Source of the DNA: Pseudogymnoascus verrucosus
Taxonomy: Eukaryota
Length of the DNA: 32,305 nt
Reading direction: 5' to 3' (one strand)
Assembly: GCA_001662655.1 (NCBI GenBank)
Contig: KV460241.1
Shown: positions 1,765-32,305 of the stretch, in pieces
Layout: every line of letters begins with the position of its first letter
Position numbering within the stretch: the first letter of the stretch is position 1
Translations under genes and position numbers: made by a program
Notes under the pieces: generated by a model
The model's database searches: none
The model's input: the letters and a program-made list of their open reading frames with translations, nothing else
Told to the model about the DNA's origin: nothing

Positions 1765-3408
1765 ATGTCCGCCATCGATTACCTGCTCCACGAGAGCTCA
1801 GTGGGATATGCGATCTTCCAGGTCGTCCACCAGCCAGAGACTATTGGCAGCAGATTGAAGGAGGTTGAGGCTGCTTCCCAGGATGTCGCCAAGTTCGGAA
1901 AGATGGTCAAGCTGGTCAACTTTGCGCCTTACAGGTACAATTGAAACGGAATCAATTCTTCTAAGACGAGATTGCTAATTCTGATTACAGAGGTGCGGCC
2001 GAGGCCCTTGAGAACGTCAACCTCATCTCTGAGGGTGTCCTGTCCGAATACCTCCGCTCCGTCCTTGAGCTGAGTCTCCCAAAAGTCAGCAAGAAGAAGA
2101 AGACCGTTCTCGGTGTTCAGGACAAGGCCCTGGCCGGTAGCATCAAGGCCAACTTCTCCTCCGTCGAGTGCGAGACCGGTGACACCTCCGAGGTTGTCGC
2201 CGACCTTCTCAGAGGCCTGCGTACGCACGCTGGAAAGCTGCTGAAGGGTCTCCACGAGGGAGATGTCGAGAGAGCCCAGCTCGGTCTCGGCCACGCCTAC
2301 TCTCGCGCAAAGGTCAAGTTCTCCGTCCAGAAGAACGACAACCACATCATCCAGGCCATTGCCACCCTTGATCACCTCGACAAGGCCGTCAACACATTCT
2401 CCATGCGCGTGCGCGAGTGGTACTCGTGGCACTTCCCCGAGCTGATCAAGATCGTCTCGGACAACCACACCTACGCCAAGCTGGCCCTCGCCATCGGCGA
2501 CAAGAAGTCCCTCAGCGACGACCGTCTCCACGACATCGCCGCGCTCGTCAACGACGACGCCGACATCGCCCAGGCCATCATCGACGCCGGCAAGGTGTCC
2601 ATGGGCCAGGACATCTCCGAGGAGGACATGAAGAACGTCTCTGCGTTCGCTAACCGCGTCGTCAAGCTCGCCGAATACCGCCGCTCCCTCTTCCAATACC
2701 TCACCGACAAGATGGCCATCGTCGCGCCCAACCTGGCCTCGCTGATCGGCGAGGTCGTCGCCGCGCGCCTCATCTCCCACGCGGGCTCTCTCACCAACCT
2801 CTCCAAGTACCCCGCCTCCACCGTCCAGATTCTCGGTGCTGAGAAGGCGCTGTTCCGCGCGCTGAAGACCAAGGGAAACACCCCCAAGTACGGTCTTATT
2901 TACCACTCTAGCTTCATTGGTCGCGCTGGCGCCAAGAACAAGGGCCGCATTTCCAGATTCTTGGCCAACAAGTGCTCCATTGCGTCGAGGATTGATAACT
3001 TCTCCGAGACCCCGTCGACGAAGTTCGGTGAGGCTCTCAAGGCTCAGGTCGAGGAGAGACTTGAGTTCTACGCCACCGGAAAGGCACCAACCAGGAACGA
3101 GGAGGCTATGGTACGTTATCCGTTTACATTTCCCTAAAAAAATAAAAAAACAGATTTGCTAACACACCCCGCAGAAGGGAGCCATGGATGCCGTCCTCGG
3201 CGAGATCCAGATCGACCCCGAGATGGCCGATATCGTCCCCCCCAGCGCCACCAAGAAGGATAAGAAGGAGAAGAAAGATAAGAAGGAGAAGAAGAGCAAG
3301 TCCGGCGGCGACGACGAGAAGAAGGACAAGAAGCGCCGGCGCAGCGAGGCTGCCGACGAGGAGCCCCCGAAGAAGGAGAAGAAGAAGAGCAAGAAGGTCG
3401 CTGCCTAG
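1765..3408 (+). CDS. NOP56: Nucleolar protein 56 (box C/D snoRNP); exons 1765-1934, 1991-3110, 3175-3408; ~507 aa
   Basis: N-terminus [18 protein letters not shown], then [28 protein letters not shown] and [23 protein letters not shown], ending in a KKE/D-rich tail. Both introns are GT-AG with CTAA(T/C) branch sites and splice in frame. Confidence 0.95.
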
Positions 3409-12500: not shown

Positions 12501-12682
12501 TGTATACACTCGACACACATACGATACGATACGCACGAGACAACAACGAGAATACCACTCCCTCACACCCGCTGGCTGGCCTTAGCGACGACGAGTGAGA
12601 CAGGTGTGCACACCCAAACCAGGACTCGACGCTCTGCCTGAGCAGCAGACAACAACACATACACACACAACGAGCAGCAGTC
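6561..12682. repeat. Long low-complexity intergenic tract rich in microsatellites and purine/pyrimidine runs
   Basis: Includes (TG)n at ~7175-7210, (GAGAA)n at ~7505-7525, (TCTG)n at ~7929-7950, (TATTG)n at ~9046-9062 and (CCATCCG)n at ~10682-10703. The ORFs here have no recognisable domains. Confidence 0.7.
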
Positions 12683-14070
12683 ATGACTTCCATAGTAAGC
12701 CAGCCCATACCGTCTCCCTTTCCCTGCATATCCAGCCCGCCTTCACTTTTGCGATCTTCAACCCCCACATCCACATACCCCCGTACCTCTCCCTCACTCA
12801 ACCCTCCCCCTTTACAAATTCCAAACCACAGCCAGACCTCAGCCAGATCTCAACTAACCCTCTCTCTCTCCAGCTCTGCCTTGCGCACTACTGCGACACC
12901 CACGGCCCAACCCCCCTAATGGTGACCGAAGAGCTCCCCGTCCCCTGCACAACCTGCCTCGACCCCCCCACCTACCCCGACACCCCCCTCCCCTCCGCCT
13001 CTCTCTCCCGCAACCCCTCCGGCTCCTTCAGCTCCCCAACAACATCCATCCAGCTCTCGCGCCCTCACCCCCCCTCACCCACCCCCTCCACCCCGCCCGC
13101 CTCCCCCCGCATGGCACCACGCATCCACCGCCGCGACTCCTCCTTCCGAAAAACCTACGACGAAGCAGATCGCAAGCGCGCTATCCCCTGCGAAAACTGC
13201 GCCCTCACCCTCCCCCGCAAAGTCTCCCCCTCACCCTCAGCATCCGCCTCGAATTCCCCCTCCATACCCCCACCCCCCGCAGACGACTCCACCTCCCCCA
13301 TCCTCCGAACTCGCAAACCCTTCGCACTCATCTCCTCCGCCTCCTCAACACCAAAACACTCCCCCTCCGACTCCGACGAACCGGACGCCCCCCCCGGCCC
13401 TGCGCTCTCGCGCCGCAGACGGTCCATTCCGCGCTCGGTGGCATCAGCGGGTGATTCTCAGAAACATACGCATTACCTCGACTACACATCCTCTCACGAC
13501 CCGTCTTCCGCGACGACATTCTCCCTCCTCCGCGCTGCGTGCCTGCGCACCTTATCCTGCGAGACGCTCCCGCCTTCCTCGCCTACCCCACAACCCGCCG
13601 GTGGCCCACTATTCTTCGGCGACCCCCTAGCCGGGTATACAACCGCCTTCCTCTTTCGCATACCAGATCCCTGGGCGAGGGGTCGGAGACGCGTGTATGC
13701 GTTTTTATGTCTCAGCGTCCTAAGCGAGCGCAAAGCCATGCGTGTCTTCGGCTTCCTCGCCGGCGCATTCAGGGAGTTAGCAGGATGGATACAAGGCCTC
13801 GCCGAGGCGGGGAACTCGGAGAGTGGTATCGCTGAGGGGATTGATGAGGAAGGCGGTGGTGGTGGTGGTGCTGGTAACAGAGGAAGAGAGGGAGAGCCGA
13901 GGATACGGAGTAGTTTCCTCGGGAGTAGGGGGGATGAGAGGGGGAGGGGGGTGAGGGCAAGGGGGTTGGCGGAGGTTGTGGGGAAGCCGGACTTTTTTAT
14001 CGAGTTGCATGTTAGGTTTGTGGCGTTGGCGGCGCAGTTGAGGTTTTTGGTTGAGGGGGGGCAGGGGTGA
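12683..14070 (+). CDS. LST7: Folliculin/Lst7-like protein; exons 12683-12694, 12874-14070; ~402 aa
   Basis: The spliced N-terminus MTSILCLAHYCDTHGPTPLMVTE matches the folliculin N-terminal motif. Also present are CENC, LRAACLRTLSCE, GGPLFFGD, DPWARGRRRVYA and ARGLAEVVGKPDFFIELH. The intron has a GTAAGC donor, a CTAAC branch site and a CAG acceptor. Confidence 0.85.
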
Positions 14071-14830
14071 GAGGTGCCTGCCCACCTACCGATACCGATA
14101 CGGACTGCTGTGATCTGCTTCTACGAGAGATGAGATGGCTGAGGTGGATGAGGATGAGGGAAGAGATGGAAGAGATGAGAAGAGACGACACGACCTCAAC
14201 GCATCAACGAGCGATTAGATTCTCCCGTTCGAATCGGGACGGAAGAGAGTGAGAGAAAGAGAGAAAGTGTGTATTTTTATATGTACGGAAACCGGAAACC
14301 GGAAAACGGGCAGCATGGGGAACTGAGATGGACTGAAATGATCTGAGCTGGGGGGAATATTATAGACACAAGGCCATTGCTCCGCCTTCGGTATGGGTTT
14401 TTTTGTTTGGCATTTGGGATTTGTTTGGTTTTTGGCGCGCGGGGGAGCGAGAGCGGGTGTTGTTTTAAAAGGGGGGGGGGGTGATACCTGGGGGTTGGGG
14501 GTGGGATGGGATAGGATGGGATGGGATGATTAGATGTGGAGTGGAGTGGACGTGTATTATATGTGTTTATGGGTTATGGTGATGAGTGTTTATATATGGA
14601 ATCGAAGGTTTTACAGGTCAAGCTTTTTTTGACTAGTCTGCTCTCCTCTGCTTGTCTATGCTTGCTTGCTTTCTTGTGCACACTCATGAACAGCAGCTAT
14701 GGTTGGTAGAGGAAATGGGAAATGTATATTTGTTCACTCTCTGCTTTATCTGCTCGCGTGTTTGGTAGGTTGGTAGGGGATGGGATATGAGCTGTGATGT
14801 GAGAAAGCAAAAAAATAAATAAAAATAAAA

Positions 14831-14907
14831 ACATAGAACAGTAGGTATTCACTGGTAGTAACCCACCCAACTACTAATCCACCGATCTCAAGTTTGTGTA
14901 TGGCAGA
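14831..14907 (-). rRNA. 5S rRNA: 5S rRNA gene fragment: 3' ~77 nt only, 5' ~42 nt missing, degenerate
   Basis: The minus strand reads TCTGCCATACACAAACTTGAGATCGGTGGATTAGTAGTTGGGTGGGTTACTACCAGTGAATACCTACTGTTCTATGT followed by T-runs, as for a Pol III terminator. By eye this matches the 3' part of Pezizomycotina 5S (..TAGTAGTTGGG..GGTGAC.ACCAGCGAATCCC...TGTTGTATGT). The expected 5' part (ACATACGACCAT...ATCCCGTCCGC) is replaced by unrelated sequence. Confidence 0.85.
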
Positions 14908-15029
14908 CCTACAAGCAACCACTTGCTTTTTACTTCGGTCGGTGACATAGTGCGGGAGCGTCGCCGCCTTAAGTTTTTGATGCTCTCACGATAATCCAGT
15001 TATCACCCTCAGTTCCGTGATAGCGACTA

Positions 15030-15241
15030 CGTTAACAACATAAGATGTAGGTCCCTTATTAAGACGCGATGGACGTAACGCACTGCGACTTTAGATAGCT
15101 ATAGAGAGTTTGGGTGATCTAGGTGAGCGGGGTGAGCAGGGTGATTAAGGGTAAGTAAGGGTGAGCGCAGGTGAGGCTTGAAAGTAGTATAAAGACAGAC
15201 TCCCTATTACCTTTACTTTTTATAGTCTGCTATCTATAACA
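15030..15241 (+). mobile_element. Probable RIP-mutated solo LTR; left boundary uncertain
   Basis: About six GGTGAG-like short repeats at 15112-15176, then TATAAAG at ~15188 and a terminal ATAACA at 15236-15241. The region is TpA-rich. No target-site duplication was found. Confidence 0.4.
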
Positions 15242-15636
15242 TTCTCAACTCCTTTATAAGGACCTACTTCCTGCTATAATAGGACAGACGGTAATGTCTA
15301 GACAGGATTATCTTAATCTAGTAAAGAAGCAAGGGCTTTTTATGCAGTGCTTACCTAATGAACAGAAAGTGAAGAACTAGGTTAAATAGCGTTGTCTTAG
15401 CAATGCTGCTAAAAACAAGCATAAGGAAGTAGCAAATTTTGACTTAACCAAAGAGTGTAACCTTGACATATTATATTGTTCCTAATGGATATGCAAGGAA
15501 ACAAGCTGTTAATAGGATTTAGAGATATAAGGACCTGCTTCATCTAATCTAGAGTTGAATCCATCCGCTCACTATAGTCTTTAAATGAGCCCTAATTGTC
15601 TTCTGGTTTATTGTCAACACCTGCCCTTATAGCACA

Positions 15637-17527
15637 CTATCTTATTTTCCTAAACAACACATTCTTCGTTGGATCAGCCACTACATTAACCTCAAAGAGA
15701 ATGTTCTTCGGCCTCCCCACCGCTCCTTCCTCAAACTTAATTTCATAGTGTCTGAGTATATAGACAAGTATAATCTTGATCTGGTTACTAGCAAAAAACC
15801 TCCCTGGACAGGCATCATTTCCAAGCCCAAACTGCATAGAATCAAACGACGGGCTCGCAAACTGGTATTTATTAGTATCCTCAGGTTTACTACGCAACTT
15901 GTAGAAGCGGAATCCATCAAAGGAAAGTGGATCACCCCAAGAGGGGGGCGATTCCTCGAGGATGTTGGTGTTACATTGGACGATTGTGCCGCTAGGGATA
16001 TGAAAGCCGTTAGAGAGTTTCACAGGTACGAGAGCTTTTCGCTGGAAAGTAGCTACACAACGCGAAACAAGAAGGTCAGTTAAATAACCTCTCGTGGGGT
16101 CTATAGATCCTTATTGAAACTCACCGATCGATGGCGGATTATGCCTCTGACTTTCTTTCATGAAACTATCCAGCCGCCTCAACTGCGTCAAACACTGTTT
16201 TGTGAAGGTCCCGCCACTCATTTTCAATACATTTTCGATTTCTTCTCTCAAAGGCTCGACATATTCCGGCCTTGCCGCCAGATCATAAATCGCATGAATG
16301 ACGGCCATCCTAGTCGTGTGAATCGCAGCTGTTGCCGCCAACATCTGCAAGTTCGCCTGCTCCTTCGTATCCACAGTCTTGTCTCCTGATTTCCTTGCGC
16401 GGTCCTGAATCCACTGGATCATATCATTCGGCTTGACATACTTGTCTCCTTGACGCGATTCTTCTTCCGCTCGAGATTTGAGGACGGGAAGCAGAAGAGT
16501 GTGTGCAAAGGCATGGTCAGATCGTATGCGGCGGACCTCAGGGATGAAGTATTGGGCCACAGGTCGCAAGATTGGTTTCCAGGTCTTGAGTTTCTCTCCG
16601 CCAATCATAACGTCAGCTGCGAAGGTGGTTGTACAGTTAAGCCATTCCTTGTTTCGGTTGAGTGCTGGACCAACAAAAATTAGAGCGGAGGCTTGGGCGA
16701 CGATGTGAGGAAGCTTGTCGTTAAGGTTGATGGGTGTCCAATCTGTTCCCCAGTTAGCTATGGACCAAAGATTGAATTATGCATAATGTTGGTTGGCATG
16801 CCTTCGCAGTCTGGGAATTGGGTCTGGAAGCAATATTTTACCTCGTCTGCAACGTCCACAACGAATGTGCCTAGAAGTTGGCACTGTATTAGTTAATTCC
16901 TAGCAAGAACCATATCTTGGGAAGAGCCAGAGAGTGTTGCTAATGGTATAGGTAGTGTAAAAACACAACTTCACAAACCTAGATGTCGATTGAGATCAAT
17001 TTTGATCGAGTTCAGTCCTGTTTGGCTTTCGTGGTCTATCGTTGTGTATTCACCTAAAAGCCGCTACGAATACAACACTCAAGTCAGCCATAAGATCTAA
17101 AAATGGCCCTCATGTGAAGAACATAAATTGGGCTCTAACATCTGTAGTTGCCTTCATTCCACTCATTTCATGTCGTGGATAGCCCTTGAGCTCATTTGCA
17201 AAGCTTCGGGGAAGGAATAAACGCGGTCCATCTGGTGTCATGACTTGAAAAATTGATGCTGGGAACTAAGAAAACGAAATGTGAGCTGCAATCCACATTT
17301 GTTAGAGAATCATCGAAAACCTTATCATAGCCCTCTCGAAGGAGCGTATCGGCTTCGTGGACGTATTTTGCTTTCATCTTACTCATGTCTCTATCCTCCA
17401 CGCCCACGAATGGCACATTAAATGATTTGGTGGGTCTTAAAATCATCGATAGCAGAGCGACCAAGATGAGGAGCCCGCCAGTAGCTAATGGCGCTGGCGC
17501 AAAGAGAGCATCAAAATATGACCCCAT
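15637..17527 (-). CDS. Cytochrome P450 of the terpenoid-tailoring, ent-kaurene-oxidase-like type; exons 17527-17321, 17265-17140, 17063-16979, 16870-16802, 16742-16125, 16052-15637; ~506 aa
   Basis: N-terminal TM anchor, I-helix AAIHTT, ExxR (KESQR), FDGFRF and heme motif FGLGNDACPG. The six exons splice in frame, with intron 4 being GC-AG. Confidence 0.9.
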
Positions 17528-18329
17528 CTCTGGAGCCTTTGAGCGTCAATTTCTGAAGTACTGCAACTTGCAAATTATTGTCTATTCAAGTAAAGTAGAA
17601 TTTCAAACAGCTGCGCAGATATTTTCAATACAAGTATGTCATTAACATAAAGGCAAGCAAATTTATCAACTTTCAAAAGAATTGTTATTGAAGAGATCAA
17701 ACCCTATGCATACACTAGTATCACGCGCATTTTCTCGAGAGAGTTAGCACCTTCCCTAAGTAAGCATCGAAATTCTAAAACCCTTGCTAGGACAATTAAA
17801 TCGGTAACGTGACATTTCATGGTGACATACCTTGTGGATCATTCACATCATAGCGACGGTAGGTATTAGCCACAGCAACATAATACGAGGCTTAATGTCC
17901 AAATAAATGTAACTATCGTATCTTTATCGCGCGATCGTTAACAATGCTACCTTGTCATGTCACCATATAACCTCATTCTGTCAGTAATGCCCCTGTCAAA
18001 ATAAACTTCGGGCTTTTGTAACCTAATAGGTCTGATACGTTCCTTTGTTGACTCGAGAGTTCCCCCTGAAGATGGTAGCCAAGAGGGGTAGACGCCATTT
18101 CTCCGGTGGCACAGCGTCTTCTCCTTATTGCTCTGACTGAGTAGGGTTTCAATCCTACGATGGTCAGATTTGGTGAAAGTTTGGAGATGATGGGTTTTGT
18201 ATAAAGTATAGAATAAGATAATTTTCTTTATTTTCTTCCTTCCAGTTCGCCAGCAAATTCTCTGTTACAATCTAAATCCACTCCAACTCCTGTCACGAAA
18301 TTTTCGAAGTCCCATTCCCACTGCCCAAT
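17528..18329. promoter_or_regulatory. Divergent promoter region of the P450 and the terpene cyclase
   Basis: About 800 bp between head-to-head ATGs. TATAAAG at ~18200 is followed by a pyrimidine tract upstream of the cyclase. Confidence 0.5.
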
Positions 18330-19897
<1,568 letters not shown>

Positions 19898-20470
19898 GTT
19901 TGATAAACCAACTTTAGATGTTAGATATAAATTGCAGTCTTTCCTTCCGATGCTCATTGTATCTGCCGTATTGCCTTCGGCATGGCAAACTTAAAGATCA
20001 AATATAAATTTAATATAGCTACGATACATGATTCAAATTTCTTTTGGCATTTTAAATTGCTCTTTTCTTACGACTTTAGTTCGCAATCTGTGGCCGAGAT
20101 GCCTCTCGTCACCGCGTTCATCGATATAATCGAATATGGACTAAGCATCGTCAACTAAGGCACAAAGAACTGCATCTGTTGATATTTTGTCTAATAGGTG
20201 GAATTATCTGGCTATAAGTCAATGAATGCATCAACATTTCAAAATTAGACTTGGATTATTTCTTGCCTTTTATAGTGATCTGATCATACGGTTTAGATCT
20301 CAACGACGAGCTATCACTTTGCCTGCTTTATCATTTACTTGCCATTTATTACTTTGATTTTGATAAGAATGTCTGCAAAATGGATAGTTCCATGAGGCAA
20401 ATATGAATGAAAGACTCTTTATGTAATGTATAAATCAAGGTGTATTTCACCGTGAAAAGTGTCCTATCTA

Positions 20471-21769
20471 CTAAGCTGGTACCTCTAACACTCCTACATG
20501 AAGCACCTCCTCAATCGTAGGAGCAGCTTGGAGAGGCTCAAGAACACGAGTTTGATCAAGATGAACACTTCCATACCTAAGGTAGGCAGCAAAAGTTCCA
20601 GGTTCATTATCGGCGTGATGGTTCTTTGGGTCGTCCCATAAGTCAGCCAAAAAGGAGCTTAACGCACCAGGCGGCCCATGAGACAGCTTCATGGTGGAAG
20701 TATTCGCCAGCATATCATCCACAAATTTCTCCGCCTCGAGATATTTTTCATCATGCACACCATCACGCCTCGTGGCAAGGAGATCAAATTGCTTGATGCC
20801 ATTCCAGCCAGTCATCATCTGGAAATAGTATGTCTCCTGCATAGCCGGCACAAGAAACATGTTCTCTCGGTAGTATTTTGGGCCATCGAAACCATCAGCA
20901 GGGTCAACCAGTTTGCGAAGTCTCTCAAAGCAAAGGAAATGCGCCAAGTAGTCACTAAAGGCTTCCATTAATACCCCAAGATCTGGGCAATTTAGCTTGT
21001 CTACCGGAGGCGATAGGAGAGGTAAGTGGCGGAGTAGCGGATGAGCATGAAACCCTTTGCTTTCCGTGACACCTTCCCAGAGGGCAACATAAATATCATG
21101 CCACCGTTTTATGAAACCGTTTCCTCGCTTAGCAGCAATGAAGCCATTCAACATCGCGTCAACACCGGGTCGGATCTCGATGACAAAACCGGCCATTTGA
21201 TATGGCGTGTTTGTATCCTCAATTGTTTTCCAGCAGATATCGTCGATGTGTCTGAAGAGGAAAGTGCCGGCGTCCATCCAGACTCCTCCATAGAGATAAA
21301 GAAGAGGGAGGCGGATCAAGTCTGCTGAGTGGGGACCGACGTGAGGACCACTCATAGTGTGCTCATTGAAAGCAGCTGGAAAGAAGGAAGAATCGATGAT
21401 GTGGGAAATGTTGGTAGCAGATCCGGGGACACGATCGAGAATGTGGACAGTCCATTCAGGTCCGAGTCGACGCACCCAGTTGATCACATTTCGCTGGACC
21501 CAGGGAGACATTTGCGAGAAGCCTGAATGCCAAAATGCCCACACATTTTTGTCAGAGGTGATTGGATGAGGTGTTTGAAGCCATGCAGTAATCTCTTGGT
21601 CGGATCGTATATCGAGCCTTGAAGAAGGTACCAGAACTAGATCTGAGCTTTTAAGTGATTGGGGTGTTAACGGTGTTGATGTTGTTGATGTTGTCGATGA
21701 CTCTAGCTCGCTTGTTGATACCATGTCGGGATTGGTAAGGTCCCCAGTCAATTCCTGTGTACGAGGCAT
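20471..21769 (-). CDS. Glycosyltransferase of the capsule-polysaccharide-synthesis/GT32-like family; 432 aa, single exon
   Basis: KNVWAFWHSG...NVINWVRRLGPEWTVHILD and ADLIRLPLLYLYGGVWMDAG, the latter matching the GT32-like D..R...L...GG.W.D signature. Confidence 0.85.
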   Translation of the reverse strand: MPRTQELTGDLTNPDMVSTSELESSTTSTTSTPLTPQSLKSSDLVLVPSSRLDIRSDQEITAWLQTPHPITSDKNVWAFWHSGFSQMSPWVQRNVINWVRRLGPEWTVHILDRVPGSATNISHIIDSSFFPAAFNEHTMSGPHVGPHSADLIRLPLLYLYGGVWMDAGTFLFRHIDDICWKTIEDTNTPYQMAGFVIEIRPGVDAMLNGFIAAKRGNGFIKRWHDIYVALWEGVTESKGFHAHPLLRHLPLLSPPVDKLNCPDLGVLMEAFSDYLAHFLCFERLRKLVDPADGFDGPKYYRENMFLVPAMQETYYFQMMTGWNGIKQFDLLATRRDGVHDEKYLEAEKFVDDMLANTSTMKLSHGPPGALSSFLADLWDDPKNHHADNEPGTFAAYLRYGSVHLDQTRVLEPLQAAPTIEEVLHVGVLEVPA

Positions 21770-23514
21770 CTTAGATAAAATTTGGTATAGGATAGAAAGC
21801 AGACGATATTTGCTCCAAAAATAGTTATCGTATATATTTCCGTGACTTTTCTATGATACTGCGTATTAACTTTATATCCTAACTATAGGCGCAGTCACCT
21901 TCAAGTACCACAAGGCATGTTTTAGTACGGATTAGGATTTGTAGTGCTTCTATGATGAATTGTTTGTGGACTAGTTGGCGAAGGAGACGTTTCTATTCAT
22001 GGGGTTAAGGTGTCTCCTTGTACGGACTAGATGATGTAACGTTATCTAAACTTGTGATGCATGAATTCTCAATTTATCATCGTCTACGACCCTTCAGGGG
22101 AACTGCGTGCTAGTGCACCTAGGAGCTATGACAGTGGATACCCTAATATACTATGAAGTGTCCGTTCGTATTGGCTCAGGCTTGGGTCGTGGTAAGTACC
22201 TATATGCAGCCACTGAATTCTATCACAGCTGAAGCTGAGGGATTTCGGTTCGTCAAGGTTTTCTGAGGAAACCCCCCGAGCTCTATAATTAGTATACGTA
22301 GCCCCCTTAGGTAGTGTGGTAATTCAATTTTATCTTATATACTGTAATGTTGAGCTTTCTGACCGCTACGCCAAAAACCAGAAGTTCCGGTCACTAGAGA
22401 CGCCCTACAATTTGTCTGCGTCCTCATATTCTGGTACTTCAACAAATCGGTTGCATGTCGTTTTGTACCTCTCTGTTGATAAACGAACTCGTTTCGATTG
22501 ATTCGGTCATGACGTCAACTCTGACTTTCGGTTTGCCTTCATAAGAAATGAGAGTGAGGGGCGAAGAAAGGGAGGCCAAGGTGTTAAGGGAACCTTTGTT
22601 TTCTCAAGGAAAGAGGGGATACAGGAAACGTGTGATGCACGGATGCACGAATACATTGGCACGTGGTATACACACGTGGTTTACATGTAGGACAGCGTGA
22701 TTTCCGACTGCGCGAACCAAACGTAGAATTAATGGGACTACGGCCTTTACCTATGCCGTGGTGTTTTATGTGTGTTATGTGTGCGTGTTGCTCCTCAATA
22801 GGACGGTAATAAACGATGATGCCGATGAGCACGAGGGGGTATGCACACGTATCATCGTTCCTAACGCTCATGGGCCATTCACACTGTTCATGCCAGTTTA
22901 GGCAGCAGTTTTCACTTGAGCTTGAAAATGAGACAATCCTCGTGCAAACCCAAATAACACGGGATGACGCTTTACCCAGCACTGTATCACACACCATATG
23001 TAGAAGTATAGGCGCTGTCCCTAGACTTTACTATATTGTTCACAGCTTCAAATTCGACTATGATGAAGCACATGTTTAGTTTAAATTTGCATGTCTGGCG
23101 TTTGGATGCTTGCGCGACCTGTAAGGTAGTGAAATTTAAATAAGTTAGGTATGTGATCTTGGGATCCAGGTGCGCACGAACTAACCATGGATAAGGTATA
23201 TGTACAGTACAGCAAAACAGCGACTCACGAAACACCTAGAAAAGTGCAAGGTATTGAGCGACAAATTCTATGCGACAAACTCAGATAAGCTTAGCATAGT
23301 GAGGTCAATCCATCCTGCAAGTATTTAAATGTTCTTGGACCCCCTCCCTAGACAAAGTGTGCAATGCCACCTTTTGCTCTCGTATTTACTGGGCTCCGCT
23401 AGTCCACTATCTAAGCTCATTCGACAACGCTGTCCGGCGCTTATTTAAGACCGCTAAAATTAACCTGCGACTTTTTAACCTTCATACTCAAATACCAAAA
23501 ATACTCAAAAGTCA

Positions 23515-24210
23515 ATGGCGACTTTCCATCCCTTCCCCCGCCTTACCCTCGAACTACGCATCCAGATCTGGGGATTCGCGACGGAGGATCGAGTTCTTAG
23601 AGTCAGAAAAACATGGAATCACAACCAAGGTTATTGGTCTCCCACTGCAGTACCAGCTGTAACCAGAGCATGTTCGGAATCCCGCGAACATTGCAGCTAC
23701 CGAAAAGCCTTTATCATTAACTCGTCTCCACGCTACATTTGGGCGAACTTTGATTGCGACGTTATACAGATGAGAAGCAGACTACTAGCAGACAAAAATA
23801 TCCTGGAAAGAGATGAGGTTAGGCATTTAAGGATTGAGTTAGTGAATGAACAGGGGTTGGATGAGTCAGAATTTTTCTACCACAACCACGTTCACAAACT
23901 CCCCGATTTCCCTAAGCTAGAGAGCTTTAATCTCTTAGTGAGTGATGGGTTGTGGCCGCAGTGGACAGACTTTATTAAAGAGACGTACTGGGGAGCGTGT
24001 CCAAGGAGGAATGTTCGGATTGTGGATAGGAGGACAGGGGAGTGGATTGATGAGGAGACGAGCGGGGCGTACCATGACTACCGTGATAGTAATGGGGGGA
24101 AAAACGATAATTATACGAGGGTGGTGGATGATGAGGAAGAGGAGGAGGGGAGGATGGAAGCGATGAAACGGCTTCAGATACCCCTGCCGCGGATTGATTT
24201 GGATTATTGA
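23515..24210 (+). CDS. 2EXR-domain protein, 231 aa
   Basis: The N-terminus MATFHPFPRLTLELRIQIW and ...PAVTRACSESRE...IWANFDCD fit the 2EXR family pattern F.LFP.LP.ELR..IW...C.ESR...F..D. Confidence 0.8.
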   Translation: MATFHPFPRLTLELRIQIWGFATEDRVLRVRKTWNHNQGYWSPTAVPAVTRACSESREHCSYRKAFIINSSPRYIWANFDCDVIQMRSRLLADKNILERDEVRHLRIELVNEQGLDESEFFYHNHVHKLPDFPKLESFNLLVSDGLWPQWTDFIKETYWGACPRRNVRIVDRRTGEWIDEETSGAYHDYRDSNGGKNDNYTRVVDDEEEEEGRMEAMKRLQIPLPRIDLDY

Positions 24211-24239
24211 TAGTACCGATACTATCACTGTAACGATCA

Positions 24240-25240
24240 TTCAATAGCACTGTAACTCTAGTGGCAATATCAAGTGGGCGATATCGACCAAGTTGAGTTG
24301 CTTCTCGAAAGTGTCGTGTTTCTGCTTCGGCAGTGGCTTTGTGAAGCCGTCTGCTATCATCTGGGAGGTCGAGACCCAGCTGATCTTGATATTTCCTAGC
24401 TGGACCTGTTCCCGTAGCCAATGTCCATGAATATAAAACGTGGCGTAGCTTTGTAAGCAGCTTGATCGATGATTGATTCATGAGCCGGACTGTCTGTAGG
24501 TTGTCGCAGCTGATTGTAGAGTCCTCGTTTAGTTCTAGTTCAACCTGCTTGAATAGTCTCTTCCACTATATCAGCTGTGTAGCTGCGTCTGAAGCTGCCA
24601 GAAGCTCTGATTCTGCATTGGTTCTAAACTTATTTGATTTCCAGTCCACTGATCCTCGGAATAACTTGAACAGGAAGCCTTGAGTGCTTTTCCTATCTGG
24701 ATGGTCTGCGAAGGAAGCGTCTGTAGCTGTCTCAAGTAATTTCTGTGTTCCTCGTACTATTCTGAGACCTGGTCCTGGGTCTTTTCCTGATTCTGGTCTG
24801 ATACCAGGCGGCTCCACCCCCTTAGGAAGTACGATGCTCTCTCCAGAATAGGGGTCTTCCTGATACGTCTGCCAGTGAGGATATTGCCTTCATCGACATC
24901 TAATCCAATCTCTCTCTGTACATGAATAGGGTTATCCTGGCTGTCTGTCTGGGTTTCGTGAATCGTCATCCCTAACGTTGGGTCAGGTGTAGCTATAGGG
25001 GTCGGAAACTGATTCTCATTTGGAAGTTCATATTCTGCTTCAATGTCCACCCCCTTAGCTAAGGCAGTAGCTGAGTCCGCTGGCCTAGCTGAGCCCGCTG
25101 TTTGTAGCTGCACTAGACGAGGGGCAAACACAATTGTGTCACCAATTTCGCTGTCGATGTCCACCCCATCAGCAAAGACAGCGGCTAAGTCCGCTGCTTG
25201 CAGCTGCTCTGAGCGAGGCATGCACACATAGCCCACTCCA
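24240..25240 (-). mobile_element. Ty1/copia retrotransposon pol remnant: integrase-RT linker joined to RNase H, frameshifted
   Basis: RNase H motifs DASFADHPDRKSTQGFLFKLF..SVDWKS, ESELLA, CDNLQT, TKLRHV and HWLREQV...QMIADGFTKPL are spread across frameshifts. Upstream lies the linker-like DVDEGNILTGRRIR. Confidence 0.85.
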
Positions 25241-25330
25241 TGACCTGCTCTCGATTTACATTTCCCATGTTTGATTTGGCACAGCTGGCCCCGATTCGGC
25301 CTGTATCATTCTTTGCAGTGACTTCTACAA

Positions 25331-25628
25331 TTATAGCACAATTAAGTTGGCGCATCTAATCCGCCACCTTCGGGTCTTTCTGCGCTTCCTAAAAATTTCC
25401 TTCATCCGAGAGTAGAGGTGCCTATCTTCTTCTTTCCATTTTCCACCGCCGGGGAAAACGACCCTCCGTAATCTGTTGACCCAGGGGATCAACCGTTCAT
25501 GATATGGCGTGAAGTATATTCTGTTGCCCTCTGACGAAATATCTCTTCGTCTGCCACAGTGCCTAATTTCAACTTTGCCAGTTCTTCCATATGCACATAG
25601 TTCCAATTATCAAACTGTGGAACAACAA
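25331..25628 (-). pseudogene. C-terminal remnant of a FunK1 (Sgk2-like) fungal protein kinase
   Basis: VVPQFDNWNYVHMEELAKLKLGTVADEEIF, a frameshift at ~25515, then FTPYHERLIPWVNRLRRVVFPGGGKWKEEDRHLYSRMKEIF. I recognise this from memory as the FunK1 C-terminus. The 5' part is cut off at a transposon TIR. Confidence 0.6.
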
Positions 25629-25632
25629 GCTT

Positions 25633-25664
25633 ATTTAGGTAGCTAACTCGCTTATAAAATACGT
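25633..25664. repeat. Orphan terminal inverted repeat of the same pogo family
   Basis: TTTAGGTAGCTAACTCGCTTATAAAATACGT+TA is nearly identical to the right terminus at 27501-27533. Confidence 0.8.
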
Positions 25665-25692
25665 TACTAGAATATCTAAAACTTAATAGTTA

Positions 25693-27531
25693 ACGTATTT
25701 TATAAGCAAGTTAGCTACCTAAACTAGTTAGCTACTAAAACACTAAATTTAACTATTACTACCTACTTCTATACTACTACCCTATATAATGACCCTTATT
25801 TAATTATAATTAAATCCTTATGCCTCTTATATATATAGGAGTTATAGCCTATAATACTATATAAGCTATAGTTCTTCTATTAGCCCTTAGAGCCTACCTA
25901 CTAACTACTCTTACTTACTACCTCTATATAGACTTAAGCTTTAACTTTAGCACTTTAAACAATATCCTCTCCCTCTTATATAGAGAGACTACTCCCTTAC
26001 ATTATATACCTCTTACGCTTCCTTTCCCTCCTCTTTTTCTATTTATTTGCTACTTATAGAGCCTTAACTTCTACCTTAAGTAGAATAGTAGAATGTATTA
26101 TAACTTATACCCCCTTAATAAGGTAGCTAATAGCATTATTAATTAAGGTAGGAGAGCTATTCTAATGTTATATAACATAGTTCTTAATATGCTCTATTTA
26201 AAAATTAAGCTCCCTTATAGTTTAAGGAGTCTTTAAAGTCTAATTATTACTCTTAACTATAGAAGGGGTTAAAGTCCTTAAGTGTAGATTTAAGTAAGAG
26301 AGGACACTCTATAGCTTCTATAGAACTAGCCCTATTACTTAGAATCTACTCTTAATGTTCTACTCTATAAATGTAGCTTTAAATGCTTCTTTAAATGTAG
26401 AGAGAAACTTAAGTTTTATAATATAGTTTAGCCTATTCTATATAAAGGTTTTAATCTAACGTCTATATAAAAGCTTTAATAGAGTAAAGTAACTTACGTT
26501 AAGTAGCTAAAGAATGTATAAGGAGTATAGTAGTATATAGAGGGTAATTATCTCCTATTCTATATAGTAGTGCTAAAATTAAGCTAAGAGGTAGCTCTTA
26601 TATCTATTAAGAATAAGAAGGTAATAGGTTCTAATTAAACGACTGTTTATATGTTAATTAAAGTGTTAAATCTACTTATACCTAATTAAATTTAAAGTCT
26701 ACCTATTCTTACTTAGCATAATCACCTAATTGTCTAATAATCCTAAGTCCTTATACTAAGTAGAGAGGTGATTCTATGCCTTAAAAATAATAAACAGTAG
26801 GAGTGCCTATCTATATAAATTAACACCTTAGATAATTAACACCTATTCCCTATTTCTTAGCTATATAGTCTTTAGACAACTCTTTACTTCTAAGCTTATA
26901 ACTACCTTTATAGTAGCAATAACTCCTATTATAAAACCTACTTTATTAAAGTTATAGATATCCTACTCTAAGATGCTATACTTTATAACTATGTTTTGTA
27001 TAAGAGAGAACTACTCTTAAATTATCTTAAGATCTTTACATTTTGCTCGTTTATAATTATACTTCTAGCTAAACTTTACTTTGATTTCTATACAACGCTT
27101 TATAAAGTTAGTAGTCTAATTCTTCTTAATAGGGCTCTTGCCTTGTTTAGAGAGTAGAAGATCTACCATTTCTTATACACCCTATAGCTAGGGTAGAAAT
27201 CTATGTAAATCTAGGTTAAGGATATACTAAATAAGAGCTAACTCTTTATATAGAGTTAACTTCTATATGTTAGGGGTAGAGTTGCGTTAAGAGGTCATTC
27301 TATTTATTCTATTAGTAAGGGTGCTATGTAACACGTTATATAATAATGTAGTAGCTTAGACACTCTTAAATTAATGTTCCTTTAGTGCTTAAATAGCTAA
27401 TAGTATTCTACCCTCTTAATTAGAGGATTAGGCTTATGTTAGTTGTAGCATATTAACTTTTGTTAAGTTAACGCGTTTTAGTGTTTTAGTAGCTAACTCG
27501 TTTAGGTAGCTAACTCACTTATGAAATACGT
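25693..27531 (-). mobile_element. Full-length Fot1/pogo-type (Tc1/mariner) DNA transposon inactivated by RIP
   Basis: 1839 bp with ~55 bp TIRs beginning ACGTATTT and TA on both flanks. The transposase motifs are recognisable through C>T/G>A changes: IYNFNKVGF for NFDE.GF at ~26960-26935, and LLILNRYKSY for LLILDGHESH at ~26620-26591. TpA is in strong excess and stops are frequent. Confidence 0.92.
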
Positions 27532-29001
27532 TATAGGTAATAGAGTATATTAATGTATTATTATTTCTCTTTTAATGAAGTTATTTAGAATGTTTATTAT
27601 TATTTATATGTACTTCTATGTTAGTAATAGCATAGTAATTATTACAATTTATTGACCATTTGTACTTTTACATATAATTTACTATGTAAAGATACCTGCA
27701 AATTTAGCCCTGGTTGCGCGCACTTGCTTCTAGTGCGCGCACTTGCTTCCACCCACGGTTATATTCAGACATAGATATACAGGGTACTGTTTCGCTATCC
27801 GTGTCCTACTCCCAGCCATATTGTTGGGTTGGAGGCCGGGCATGATACCAGCATTAGGCTAGTAGTGTTTAACTTCTAAACTTGATCTACTTCAGCTCGC
27901 AAGCATTGGGCAGCTTGTTGGCGTTTCACTTGTTGTACGCATGCATTTGGGATTGGGCATGATTTGACACTCGCCTAAGTTGACACGGGGAGCTTCGGGC
28001 TTCCCGCGTCGCGGGGGAATAAGCTCTCTAGAGCGCATCCTACTCTACTGAGTCGGGATCCCGATGGAATGGGATGCGTTCTAAAACGGTACTTTATTGA
28101 GTATGAAGAAACATTATGAAACAACCACGGTCTTCATCGCTGGGGATTGATGATGGGAGGCTGACGTGTGGTAGAGTCCTTGCTCATTTCGCTTCCTGGT
28201 TGTTGGGGCCAAGTCTTTGTAGGGAGAAAGCTGGGATTCCAGTAATCTACACCCAAAACGTGTGTTATTCTCACGGCTCCCAAAAGTGCAAGCGGCGCCG
28301 ACTGGTATCACAACGGTCAAAACAGAAAAATAGTATATAGATCAATTAAATTAATTAACTATCTAATGGTTCTACTTGGCTACTTATGGGATTTCTGGGG
28401 CACGGCCAAGACCCTGAGTTCTGACAGCTTTTCTCATCAACTGAGCCAATGTCTCACACGGCGCGCCCGCAGGGACACCCAAGCACGGGCGTATTTCCCG
28501 GAATCCCCGACAAATCCCCAAATCCCAACTGTGTTTGCAAGGGCTCGTATGCAGTATGCACTGTTCTGGCTGTTATTTACGCGCTGTGCGACCCCGTCCC
28601 TTTATTAGTCGTCTGATATTCTGTACAAGGCTGCAGGTAATGCTGTGAGAAGGGACGGCGATGTCGCTGAATCCAGAACTTGCTCCTCTAGCGTGACTTC
28701 GGGGGGATCTTTCATGTGCCCCTGATGTACGCGCAGGGTATGGAATGTTTGAAGTTGTAATCCAAGGATAAGGTCTGGAATGGTATAAGACGATGCCAGC
28801 GTGTCTATTTCTATTGTCCTTTTTCTATCAAGACGCCTCGTCAAGACGATTTAGCTCATACCTCTATTATTTTCTCAAAAACTCTCTGTTCCTATACGAC
28901 TAGTGAATCAAGACTCGACTTCCTTCAGACGGCATTTTGCACCTATCAGTTTTCCATTTTTGGTCCTATAATCTGAAACATTGGATAATCATTATATCGC
29001 C

Positions 29002-31577
29002 ATGGGAGATTCCAGCCGTTCGAATACAATGTACTTTGACGCGATTCCCCAGATGGAACCAATCGATGGAATGCATTCCCAGCTCTCGGACCAAGATCTC
29101 TTGCCAAAAATCGACAGGCTTCGAGAATTAGGAGTCCATGCCGAGCTCTCCGACAAAGATCTCTTGCAAAAAATTGACAAGCTTCGAGAATTAGGAGTTC
29201 ATGAGTTTGTATCACTTCCTCAGCTTGTTGTGGTTGGCGACCAATCGAGCGGCAAGAGCTCTGTGCTAGAAGCAGTGATGGAATTGCCGCTTCCTCGAAG
29301 TGGCACACTTTGCACTAGGTTTGCTACTAATATTACCTTTCAAAGTGCCTCAAAACCAAGAATTACCGTTTCAATCATCCCTGGTCCGTCAAGGTCCGAT
29401 GAGGAAAAGGAGCAATTGCAGGATTTTAAGAGAGAGTTGACTGTCCTTGATGGCGGTAACTTCTTATCAATTTTGAACGAAGTTAGTGTCTAGAACTCCT
29501 GCATACAGATATATTCATAACGTTTTCTAGGCCTGTGACGCTATGGGTGTTCCTAAACCAGAAGAGCTGTTTGATGTCGATGGTAGTAAGAGCAAGCCTA
29601 CTTTCAGTGAAGACGTCTTCAAGGTAGAGCTTTGCGGTCCAGGCCGTGACAACCTGAGCATTATCGATATTCCAGGGATCTTCAGAACTGAGACGAAAGG
29701 GACTACTACGTCCAAAGACATGGCAATGGTGAAGGAAATGGTCAACTATTGGATCAAGGATGAGAGAACAATTATCCTAGCAGTCATTGGTATAAATAAT
29801 GACGTCGCTACCCAGGAAATACTTTCAGTAAGCAAGGCGAAGGTGTTATGTCTTTGAAATTCAACTATGCTAACACTATATTAGATAGCTAAAAAAGCGG
29901 ATCCTAAAGGTCTTCGGACATTAGGCATGTAAGTAATGGTTTACTAAAATCATGGAACATCTTTAACAATATTTACTAGCTTAACAAAGCCTGATATAGT
30001 CGGTGATGGCGAAGAAGGGAGAGTGTTTGATCTCATAAATGGGAAGCAGCACAAGCTTACACATGGATACCATGTGCTTCGGAATCTTTCACAGAAAGAC
30101 TTGGATGCTCAGAAAGGCTTGAATGGGCGGAACGACTCCCTCTCTCGTAGAACTAAGGAGCAAGAATTCTTCAACAAGAAGCTTTGGTCAGCACTTCCAA
30201 AGAGTCGGGTTGGAGTTGACGAACTGAAAAAACGACTAACAGTTCTGTTGACCGACATGGTCAAAAAAGAGTTCCCTAAGATCAAAAGTCAACTTGCGCA
30301 AGACCTGATCCTGGCAAAGAAACAGCTAGCCATGATTGGCACAGAGCGAGCGACACCTCAGCAACAGAGAGTTTACCTTGAGGAAATTGCAGCGAAGTTT
30401 AAAGATCTATCCAAGCTCGCACTGGACGCCGATTATCGAGATGAAATCTTTCAAAACGACAAATGTCTCCGATTGCCAACGCTAATAGTGAATCGATACG
30501 ATCTATTTGAGAAAGAGATTAGAACGAAGGGGCACACTTACAAGTTCGACAACGACGAGGGCAATGGCAGTGGCAATGATGAGGATGAGGATGCGGATGA
30601 AGCAATAAGTATCGCCTCTGAAAATGAAAGTGCGACAGACGAAAATGAAAGTGGCAAGGGATATGAAGTTGAACGTTTGAACTCCTTACAACAATTATTT
30701 AGAGAAACTACTAATATCAAATATAGCAACACCGAAACCCATAGGTCGGGTTTTCCCTGAACTTGACAATGTTCTTAGCCAAAGCTTCAACATATTAGAC
30801 GCAGACAAAACCAACATTCTCGACTGGATTAGACGTCAGTACCTGGAATCGAGAGGTTACGGCCTACCAGCGATAGATCTCAGAATCCTGCCTGTGCTTT
30901 GGCAAAAACAATCGAGCAATTGGGGTGGTATCACGTTATCCTTCATAAACGATATCATTGTGTACGTACACGATTTTATCTGTCGTCTCTTAAGCATTGT
31001 CTGCCCAGAGAGCAAGGTGCGAAACGCGCTACTCTCATTTTTTATGGACGACCTCGTTGCAAAGTACAGCTCCGCCATTAAACACGTCGAGTACATCCTC
31101 AAGGTCGAGCACCGCGGCACTCTCCTCACCAAGAACGAGAGCTACAGCACCGCGCTGAACGAGATGCGATATGCCCGCCTAGTCAAAGCCACCAACAATT
31201 CAGCAATTCCGACTACAAAATCGAAAGGAGGGGATTATATACCCGTTAAAGCCATCGAGGTCTCCGCCGCTGCCCTCGCAATGTCAAACAGCAACGAAGA
31301 GAATGTAGTTCAGGATCACCACGACGTCCTGCACGCATACTACAAGGTTGCAATGAGGCGGTTCGTGGACACTGTGATTGCGCAAGGTATGGACGATTAT
31401 CTCCTTACGGGAGAGAATAGCCCGATTAAGGTCATCAAGCTATCGTTCACCTCAAAGATGAATGATGACCAGATAAATGATATTGCGGGCGAGGATGCGT
31501 TTACGAAGGGGGAGCGACTGGCGTTAGAGCAGAAGATTAAGGCGCTAGAGGAGGGTAAGGAGGAGTTGAATTCCTAA
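29002..31577 (+). CDS. Mx-like dynamin-family GTPase; exons 29002-29481, 29531-29827, 29885-29928, 29980-30674, 30727-31577; ~788 aa
   Basis: G1 LPQLVVVGDQSSGKSS, CTRF, G3 DIPG and G4 TKPD, then the middle-domain WIRRQYLESRG and GED-like LHAYYKVAMRRFVD. Four GT-AG introns join the separate ORFs in frame. Confidence 0.9.
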
Positions 31578-31663
31578 GGATATGTCTTGAATTGTTAAGT
31601 AACTTGGTCTTTTTATTATTATTAATTCTGTTAAATATACACTATTTAATGGCTATTATGCTA

Positions 31664-31898
31664 TATTACACACCCCTTAAGGGAAGGGAACAACTAATAA
31701 TCTAAACAGTCTTTATAGTAAGAACTATTAGGACTTACTAGGGGACTAGATAAGTAATGTTAGGCCTAGTATAATTATTATAAATGAAGTAAAGATTCTA
31801 TTATATAGTTAGGATAAGGTATATAAGAAGTACTATCTATAGGTTTAAAACTAGTAGAAAGGTTACTAGAGGGCCTAGTAAGTATAGTACTATATAAT
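31664..31898. mobile_element. RIP-mutated repeat remnant, possibly an older LTR interrupted by the next element
   Basis: Very TpA/TAG-rich. It begins TATTACA, consistent with a RIP-mutated TGTTACA. Confidence 0.4.
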
Positions 31899-32305
31899 TG
31901 TAACGCTGGGTCTTAAACTATAAGACTCACAGAGGTTTCGTTGCGTTGGTTTACTTAACAGAGGAGGCAGGGGATCAGACACAAAGGCTTTCGTAAAACA
32001 CGTTACAGTATATAACAGAATACTATATTGAGTTGAGCACGAAGCTCCTATCTAAGAACTATCTATCTACTTATATAGTGGCGTCGTGCTAAAGGGAATA
32101 GTTGGAATAGCAGACTCTCTAACTATTCTCACTATTCCTACTAATCCAATCACGTGTGCGTCCTGTAAGAGGTGCCACACTTATTGCAGGTACCGATTCC
32201 CATAGGTGCCCTTCTAAGGAGGCACCTTGCTCTACACAGGTGCCTTTCCTAACAGGCACCTTTCTTTTGTCGGGTACCTTCTAAGAAAGGTACCTTTTCC
32301 CAAAG
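31899..32305 (-). mobile_element. LTR of a retrotransposon, with its 3' end at 31899 and running beyond the window
   Basis: The sequence changes sharply at TGTAACG (minus strand ...CGTTACA). A minus-strand TATATAAG lies at ~32077-32070, with a U3-like short-repeat array further upstream. Confidence 0.6.

Follow-up and report, generated by a model that had tools for sequence, protein, structure and literature searches.

A 5S rRNA gene that stops short at the edge of a block of housekeeping genes raises the question of what cut it, and whether the DNA beyond the cut was brought there by a transposon. The locus lies in Pseudogymnoascus verrucosus contig KV460241.1 (assembly GCA_001662655.1), from which a stretch of 32,305 nucleotides (nt), hereafter the window, was analyzed; all positions given are window positions. 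The initial annotation of this DNA had proposed that a Starship, a giant transposon mobilized by a DUF3435 tyrosine recombinase (the captain), is inserted into 5S ribosomal DNA (rDNA) here. It placed the captain-distal end of the element at 14908, and the captain together with the missing 5′ part of the 5S gene further right. Our results support a Starship-type boundary at 14908 and reverse its orientation: this end is captain-proximal, and what follows is a conserved terminal region leading into the dead remnant of a captain gene.

A 5S rRNA gene is broken at 14907/14908

The features at the junction are as follows.

14831 to 14907, minus strand: 5′-truncated 5S rRNA pseudogene, gene nt 43–119 (profile scan, relatives' contigs, alignment to 5S loci, numbering on an intact copy).
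14809 to 14830, minus strand: T-rich run resembling an RNA polymerase III terminator, directly past the 3′ end of the 5S piece (sequence reading).

Counted on an intact copy, the break falls between gene nt 42 and 43 and leaves 77 nt. T-runs also close intact 5S copies, as read in the alignment of metagenome loci. In the 32 nt that lie downstream of a 20-mer shared with metagenome 5S copies, the piece departs from the majority consensus of these copies at five positions (G>T, three C>T and G>C). A scan of the whole window with Rfam RF00001 (gathering score 38 bits) returned nothing at E≤1. When 14700–15100 was scanned, 5S_rRNA was found at 14840–14883 with 16.9 bits (E 0.68, model positions 67–109); an intact fungal 5S copy used as a control (L014) scored 70.9 bits over model positions 1–120. 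The copy in the window is a fragment and not a gene, below the RF00001 gathering threshold.

The window from 12306 to 32305 was aligned with contigs of four related genomes, referred to here as B, C, D and E (X2, X3, X5 and X6, respectively). In all four, 3–6 contigs per run match the 5S piece and diverge from the window exactly at 14907, and past that point these contigs have one common continuation. The bin that contains the 5S piece has 15–30 times single-copy depth in the relatives' contigs, as expected because 5S is a dispersed multi-copy gene.

Additionally, 65 loci were collected from a metagenome by means of a 20-mer of the 5S piece, and 60 of them contained a slightly shifted 20-mer derived from the window. 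In 47 of the 60, ungapped identity to the consensus for the first 42 nt of the gene was at least 80%. Six loci scored lower; five of these (0.40–0.43) were judged by eye to be full-length copies out of register by an indel, and the sixth, L026, had an identity of 0.79. Four more were interrupted by contig ends. The 5′ part of the gene is gone in the window (0.31) and in L036, L048 and L054 (0.29–0.33). The break at 14907/14908 is real, and the first description of the 5S gene, as keeping its 3′ 77 nt and terminator and stopping at 14907, is borne out by the relatives' contigs, the 60-locus comparison and the count on an intact copy. The possibility that 14908–14950 is a heavily mutated 5′ half of the gene was ruled out, since its identity of 0.31 to the consensus is the same as that of L036, L048 and L054 and since a search with the 5′ continuation of the gene matched nothing in this stretch. 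A repeat search of the window found no repeat touching the junction.

It is important to realize that a truncated 5S gene need not signal a transposon. L054 carries a 5′-truncated 5S at about position 3000, between acetyl-CoA hydrolase and FAD monooxygenase genes, and has no DUF3435 within 3 kb of it. This locus serves as a control that argues against over-reading truncated 5S genes. Among the other aberrant copies in the metagenome contigs, the first ~6 nt of the 5S are replaced in L021 and L047. DUF3435 was not found within the loci L054, L024 and L021.

The DNA inside 14908 resembles the ends of captain-bearing elements

In two of the metagenome loci with a 5′-truncated 5S, L036 and L048, the DNA upstream of the 5S shows homology to the window sequence on the right side of 14907. 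The features of the window recognized by this comparison are listed below.

14908 to 15278, plus strand: non-coding DNA at the captain-proximal end of a Starship-type element, with mutations resembling repeat-induced point mutation (RIP) (blastn to L036, local score against shuffles, alignments, RIP indices).
15113 to 15176, plus strand: array of the heptamer GGTGAGC at 9–10 nt spacing, 3 exact and 4 decayed copies (motif count).
15279 to 15476, plus strand: captain (DUF3435 tyrosine recombinase) stub, first ~65 codons (in-frame BLOSUM62 local score against the L036 and L048 captains).

With blastn, 14827–15245 matched L036 at 69.6% over 450 nt (E 1e-41), and with relaxed scoring the match became 14827–15525 at 63% over 734 nt (E 7e-58). 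L048 was also matched by the window under both blastn and relaxed scoring. Matches that continue past the 5S piece occurred in only two of the 65 loci, L036 and L048. The local score of 14908–15282 was 117 against L036, where dinucleotide shuffles gave a mean of 11.4 and a maximum of 15, and 36 against L048 (shuffles 11.2). A three-way alignment has columns identical in the window, L036 and L048 on both sides of the repeat array. Mere low complexity as the source of the similarity was ruled out by these columns and by the score of 117, far above the shuffle maximum.

Across 3145 nt, L036 and L048 share 67% identity. Both carry open reading frames (ORFs) that match DUF3435 (PF11917), with E-values of 3.9e-17 and 4.3e-14 in L036 and of 5.9e-08, 5.3e-06 and 6.3e-04 in L048, and in both loci these ORFs read away from the 5S piece. 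By eye in the alignment, the captain ATG lies about 370–390 nt from the 5S piece. Because the homologous DNA in L036 and L048 leads into a captain that reads away from the 5S, position 14908 is the captain-proximal end. The opposite assignment in the initial annotation does not stand, as the captain begins 371 nt in from the boundary and is read towards the right. L036 and L048 are evidence for a captain beside a split 5S rather than for complete cargo-carrying elements.

The GGTGAGC array is shared as well. Eight exact copies are present in each of L036 (reverse complement 296–371) and L048 (255–340), and GGTGAGC clusters were found in only these two captain-bearing loci of the 65. The array of the window occupies the interval 205–270 nt in from the boundary, which places it about 100 nt upstream of where the captain starts. 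It could belong to a promoter or be bound by the recombinase; with a spacing of about a helical turn, it may be an arm-type binding site of the captain. An arm-type captain site of this kind is not described in the portions of the Starship literature compared. For one 5S-targeting lineage, the conserved array offers a specific candidate cis-acting site. Homologous terminal DNA, a truncated 5S and a GGTGAGC array appear to be the hallmarks of the 5S-targeting lineage of L036 and L048, and the window has all three.

A captain gene has been reduced to a dead stub by mutation and deletion

The codon equivalent to the captain start is ATA rather than ATG, at 15279, 371 nt from 14908, and the stub contains in-frame TAG stops at 15378 and 15387. 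Against the first 65 codons of the L036 captain the stub gave a BLOSUM62 score of 54, compared with 21.6±4.0 for shuffles (maximum 42 of 200; z 8.1). The corresponding score against L048, over 51 codons, was 49, compared with 19.7±3.4 (z 8.6). The two other frames gave z of about 0. We identify the stub by its in-frame protein score and by its collinearity with the upstream homology, the nucleotide comparison alone being not significant. Captain-derived sequence thus occupies the place and orientation expected beside the boundary, as judged from the in-frame alignment and the distance of 371 nt.

Homology to L036 and L048 fades by about 15530; beyond this point the window is 40–43% identical to them, whereas L036 and L048 are 68% identical to each other. 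Since homology is gone past ~15530 and the 3′ end of a cytochrome P450 gene lies at 15640, we conclude that the rest of the captain was deleted. A tblastn search with 11 pieces of the L036 and L048 captain ORFs found nothing in the window below E 0.09. The captain that had been predicted further right is thus represented in the window by a dead 65-codon stub that ends before the P450 gene, with no DUF3435 among the ORFs scanned. The search to the right that the initial annotation had proposed found neither a captain nor a 5′ half of the 5S gene within the window.

The mutations in the element end have a distinct pattern. Between 14908 and 15530 there are 107 positions at which L036 and L048 agree and the window differs. 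These include 27 C>T and 23 G>A changes, 25 of these 50 being in a CpA/TpG context, against 8 T>C and 8 A>G. By the same count, the changes specific to L036 or to L048 have no C>T/G>A bias. RIP indices over 14908–15530 are 1.52 for TpA/ApT and 0.86 for (CpA+TpG)/(ApC+GpT). The cluster genes at 16–22 kb are not RIP-like (composite index −0.33 to −0.93). This pattern fits with RIP acting on a repeated element end while sparing its single-copy neighbours. Together these comparisons establish the boundary of the element end, its homology, its orientation and its decay.

The junction separates housekeeping genes from an AT-richer region

The genes that bear on the extent of the element are the following.

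12586 to 14067, plus strand: folliculin-domain protein, the last core gene before the junction, GC content at third codon positions (GC3) 0.69 (PF11704, E 6.9e-42).
15640 to 16776, minus strand: cytochrome P450 with two recognized exons, separated by a GTGAGT...TAG intron, and with N-terminal exon(s) to the right of these (PF00067, E 1.7e-18 and 1.7e-13).
19055 to 19743, plus strand: terpene synthase exons (PF19086, E 6.5e-06 and 0.0015).
20474 to 21850, minus strand: glycosyltransferase, a single ORF of 459 amino acids (aa) (PF05704, E 5.8e-15; PF04488, E 6.9e-06).
23479 to 24207, plus strand: 2EXR-domain gene, within a block at 23064–25632 (PF20150, E 1.3e-15).

Pfam was run on 79 stop-to-stop ORFs of at least 60 aa right of 14900 and, in the left flank, on 39 ORFs (37 of at least 120 aa and two shorter ones; about 100 left ORFs of 60–119 aa were left out). 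The left flank is housekeeping in content: serine hydroxymethyltransferase, a Nop-domain protein, an MIT+AAA ATPase, prefoldin and the folliculin-domain gene. The last of these had been called LST7; the folliculin domain is confirmed, and the name LST7 is that of the initial annotation. GC content is 0.51–0.64 left of 14 kb (one bin 0.47) and 0.41–0.48 to the right. GC3 is 0.69–0.84 in the left genes and 0.40–0.58 in all right genes. The shift in composition is real; it sets in at the junction and persists to the end of the window. The reported passage from core housekeeping DNA to AT-richer DNA therefore holds by GC, GC3 and Pfam alike.

The terpene synthase gene probably starts near 18.3 kb. 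We take PF04488 (Gly_transf_sug), which is matched by the glycosyltransferase ORF, to be the Pfam family of OCH1. OCH1 is a conserved cargo gene of Voyager and Derelict (PMC9156397).

Related genomes vary to the right of the junction

One segment of the window differs as a unit among the relatives.

14603 to 23063, no strand assigned: segment replaced by 2552 other letters in D and E; present with the same 5S/element junction in C, and largely present in B (relatives' contigs).

A contig of C runs across 14844–15189 with 14 differences and 8 gaps (about 96% identity), and C therefore shares the 5S/element junction; its next contig covers 15170–22687. In B, 14553–14890 is matched without a difference and one contig lies on 15109–22675 and 22838–23466. 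This contig goes from 23466 straight to 27737–31898, which joins the cluster to a dynamin block. Therefore B is without 23467–27736 at this place, including the 2EXR gene, a group of minus-strand ORFs and a RIP-like inverted-repeat element. In D and E, one contig each joins 13251/13271–14602 to 23064–23759/25632, with the 2552 other letters between. The joint from 14602 to 23064 means that the 5S piece, the stub, the P450, the terpene synthase and the glycosyltransferase are gone together, and both genomes have the 2EXR block in synteny with the left flank.

D and E do not offer a clean empty site: at 14602, which is 229 nt to the left of the 5S piece, their alignment ends and other letters follow. 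The alignment of related genomes that had been suggested as a check thus produced two genomes lacking 14603–23063, but not the empty site that was sought. A scan of the metagenome for an orthologous empty site by way of the folliculin-domain protein gave 594 pattern stretches, none of which was confirmed. Other contigs of D and E match 15160–15437 at about 82–84%, among them an 8.6-kb contig of D that matches 15160–15351, which points to further copies of this element end in the genus. Joints from 14892/14894 to 15113 in B and D have a short side of only 24–29 letters, with other letters in between, and were set aside as evidence; they may stem from other copies broken in the way of L036 or from chance similarity to the GGTGAGC repeat. 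The stretch at 28.3–31.6 kb was uncovered in C, D and E, as was 24312–24978 in B and C, and no absence was read from these gaps. The right-hand region is a mosaic that is different in each relative.

Discussion

Based on our results here, we think it likely that a Starship-type transposon with a DUF3435 captain split the 5S gene, that 14908 is its captain-proximal end and that the element is dead. In the course of events that we propose, a giant transposon of Starship type, moved by its DUF3435 captain, would have inserted itself in one of the dispersed 5S genes, the one that follows downstream of the folliculin-domain gene. The insertion would have split the gene between nt 42 and 43, and 14908 would be the captain-proximal (5′) boundary of the element. 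Inside this boundary lie 371 nt of conserved terminal DNA, with the GGTGAGC array and a TATA-like box, followed by the position of the captain start codon. RIP-like C>T/G>A mutation would then have hit the repeated end, destroying the start codon and creating the two stops, and a deletion would have taken away the captain beyond about 65 codons. The far end of the element and the 5′ half of the 5S gene would have been deleted or lie outside the window.

The relic certainly extends from 14908 to about 15530. A plausible extent is to 23063 at most, because everything up to that point is jointly absent in D and E; the relic could conceivably reach past 23063 in case the state of D and E is a secondary deletion. 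The claim of a Starship in 5S rDNA therefore stands as a boundary of a Starship-type element, recognized by homology to L036 and L048. The claim that the 17 kb to its right are one element does not follow from our data, given the joints in D, E and B.

Several observations weigh against this reading. The stub is not significant at the nucleotide level alone (z 1.4–1.9), and an intact DUF3435 captain at the 5′ end, the Starship criterion of PMC9156397, is lacking, as no ORF scanned matched PF11917. Nor did the scanned ORFs include DUF3723, ferric reductase, patatin or NLR genes by Pfam. The contigs of L036 and L048 are short and stop at the 5S piece, and their breakpoint differs: it lies at about nt 54–57 (by eye), compared with nt 42/43 in the window. 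They keep about 15 nt less of the 5S gene, and they are without 8 further nt. Only one element boundary is visible in the window, hence there is no direct repeat to compare. A search right of 15 kb for the reverse complement of the first 50 nt, as expected of a terminal inverted repeat, gave a best score of 12 compared with null maxima of 11–15. Neither a 16-mer nor a 30-mer of the 5′ continuation of the 5S gene had an above-chance match in the window, where the initial annotation had expected the missing ~42 nt further right. Furthermore, the replacement in D and E starts not at the proposed boundary but 229 nt to the left of the 5S piece, and low GC3 is found also in the 2EXR block, for which D and E retain synteny; composition therefore does not single out the cluster.

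Two explanations of the junction that dispense with this boundary, or turn it around, can be set against the evidence. The 5S piece could be a pseudogene of the ordinary kind, decayed or truncated without the action of any mobile element, its junction the scar of a random deletion or rearrangement. Captain-less 5′-truncated copies do exist, as L054 (none within 3 kb) demonstrates, and the Rfam score far under threshold would suit such a copy. However, the 620 nt past the break are homologous to DNA that lies upstream of the captain in two DUF3435 elements, both of them likewise joined to a truncated 5S, and this homology includes both the repeat array and an in-frame captain start; we consider a plain pseudogene highly improbable. 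Only slightly better placed, and still very unlikely, is a live or largely intact Starship that runs from 14908 to beyond 32305, with 14908 captain-distal and the captain and 5′ 5S piece further right. The shift in composition does last from the junction to the end of the window, and DNA past 32305 lies outside the window examined. The captain start and its upstream region, however, are at the 14908 end and read inward, as at a 5′ end, and the captain is truncated here. Contigs of D and E connect the left flank to the 2EXR block without 5S piece, stub or cluster, and no DUF3435 was found across 17 kb by Pfam on ORFs or by tblastn. The captain-distal orientation that this explanation requires is already largely refuted.

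A more serious alternative accepts the element end and denies the cargo. A captain-only mini-Starship or Crypton-like element may have inserted into a 5S gene at the edge of a low-GC accessory region, where a later deletion brought resident genes next to its end. This is quite possible, though we hold it short of an even chance. It would account for the low GC3 (0.40–0.58) common to all right genes, including the 2EXR block beside the left flank in D and E, for the mosaic region in which B joins 23466 directly to 27737, for the lack of any conserved Starship accessory gene among the scanned ORFs, and for a replacement in D and E that begins at 14602 and not at the element boundary. On the other hand, the cluster occupies the cargo position downstream of the captain, cluster and stub are both missing in D and E and both present in C, and Starships carrying biosynthetic gene clusters (BGCs), one of them with a terpene BGC, are on record (10.1101/2024.06.28.601215). 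Under our preferred reading of a dead Starship-type element, whether the three-gene terpenoid cluster (P450, terpene synthase and glycosyltransferase; 15.6–22 kb) is surviving cargo, fixed by the loss of the captain, is evenly balanced. A fuller scenario, in which the terpene cluster arrived as Starship cargo, possibly horizontally, and was then locked in by RIP and captain deletion, is tentative and on the whole rather unlikely. Horizontal transfer comes into consideration because the GC3 of the cluster is 0.45–0.54, compared with 0.69–0.84 for core genes. If true, this would be a datable cargo domestication across at least five related genomes. If the cluster is surviving cargo, the locus would be a worked example of giant transposons seeding fixed biosynthetic clusters at the edges of core regions.

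The layout of the locus is similar to that of known 5S-targeting Starships. These enter 5S rDNA at five or more internal sites and carry the captain at their 5′ end (PMC11162782, PMC9156397), and include Voyager, elements of the families Enterprise, Arwing and Voyager, and Osiris navis of Aspergillus fumigatus. They share with the window a DUF3435 captain at the 5′ end that reads inward and a boundary within a fragmented dispersed 5S gene. In contrast to them, the captain of the window is a 65-codon dead stub, and neither direct or inverted repeats nor a second boundary can be seen; terminal inverted repeats are often present in Starships but are not universal (PMC9156397). Voyager of Macrophomina phaseolina is reported to insert 20 bp from the 5S 5′ start (PMC11162782/PMC9156397), whereas the break in the window is at nt 42/43. 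In the available portion of the Tangerine preprint (10.1101/2025.11.25.690456) we found no mention of 5S targeting. Ordinary dispersed 5S pseudogenes of filamentous fungi are likewise partial, substituted copies below the Rfam threshold, but here the point of truncation is a mobile-element boundary with conserved element DNA alongside.

Degraded and BGC-carrying Starships are also known (PMC9156397, 10.1101/2024.06.28.601215). As in 'Derelict' and captain-less Starship-like regions, the captain is lost, neighbouring genes persist and the region varies among relatives (PMC9156397). The working definition of a degraded Starship is at least 3 matches to DUF3723, FRE, PLP or NLR genes without DUF3435 (Gluck-Thaler et al. 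2022, PMC9156397). The window has 0 such matches, and its relic is known from terminal DNA and a stub. Because the locus falls outside this definition and has no intact captain, it is recognized only through its terminal DNA. In A. fumigatus, Gnosis h2 carries the fumihopaside terpene BGC and Osiris h4 carries an NR-PKS (polyketide synthase of the non-reducing type) BGC (10.1101/2024.06.28.601215). There too a metabolite cluster lies directly inside the boundary, and its presence or absence follows the element; unlike these cases, the window has no second boundary, second insertion site or clean empty site, and its cluster is candidate cargo. In the sources compared, 5S-targeting, degraded and BGC-carrying Starships are all already published, and the present locus is a decayed further example. 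It illustrates that a Starship relic without a detectable captain domain or marker genes can still be recognized by the conserved DNA between 5S and captain start and by a stub that is short but in frame. Tools that search for captains, or Infernal with Rfam thresholds, would overlook the captain as well as the 5S piece (16.9 bits).

Other features of the right-hand region

The remaining features right of the cluster are the following.

25691 to 27533, no strand assigned: 1.8-kb element with 57-nt inverted arms (93%), strongly RIP-like and high-copy in relatives (repeat search, RIP indices, relatives' depth).
28972 to 31574, plus strand: dynamin-family gene with several exons (PF00350 and PF01031).

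The gene content first reported for the right half is confirmed for the P450/terpene synthase pair, 2EXR, dynamin and debris of transposable elements. The glycosyltransferase, which had gone unnamed, is added, and a reported FunK1 remnant was not reproduced. Four ORFs of 91–196 aa lie on the minus strand at 23978–25606, with synteny kept in D and E. Pfam at E≤10 found no credible family in these four ORFs (one chance-level match, E 0.094) and no FunK1.

The first dynamin exon region contains a 63-nt tandem duplication (86% identity) at 29068–29193. The 1.8-kb element has a partial additional arm at 25634–25666. A second high-copy RIP-like repeat occupies 31649–32305, and the end of the window falls inside it. 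Both this repeat and that at 25691–27533 occur at tens to hundreds of times single-copy depth in the relatives.

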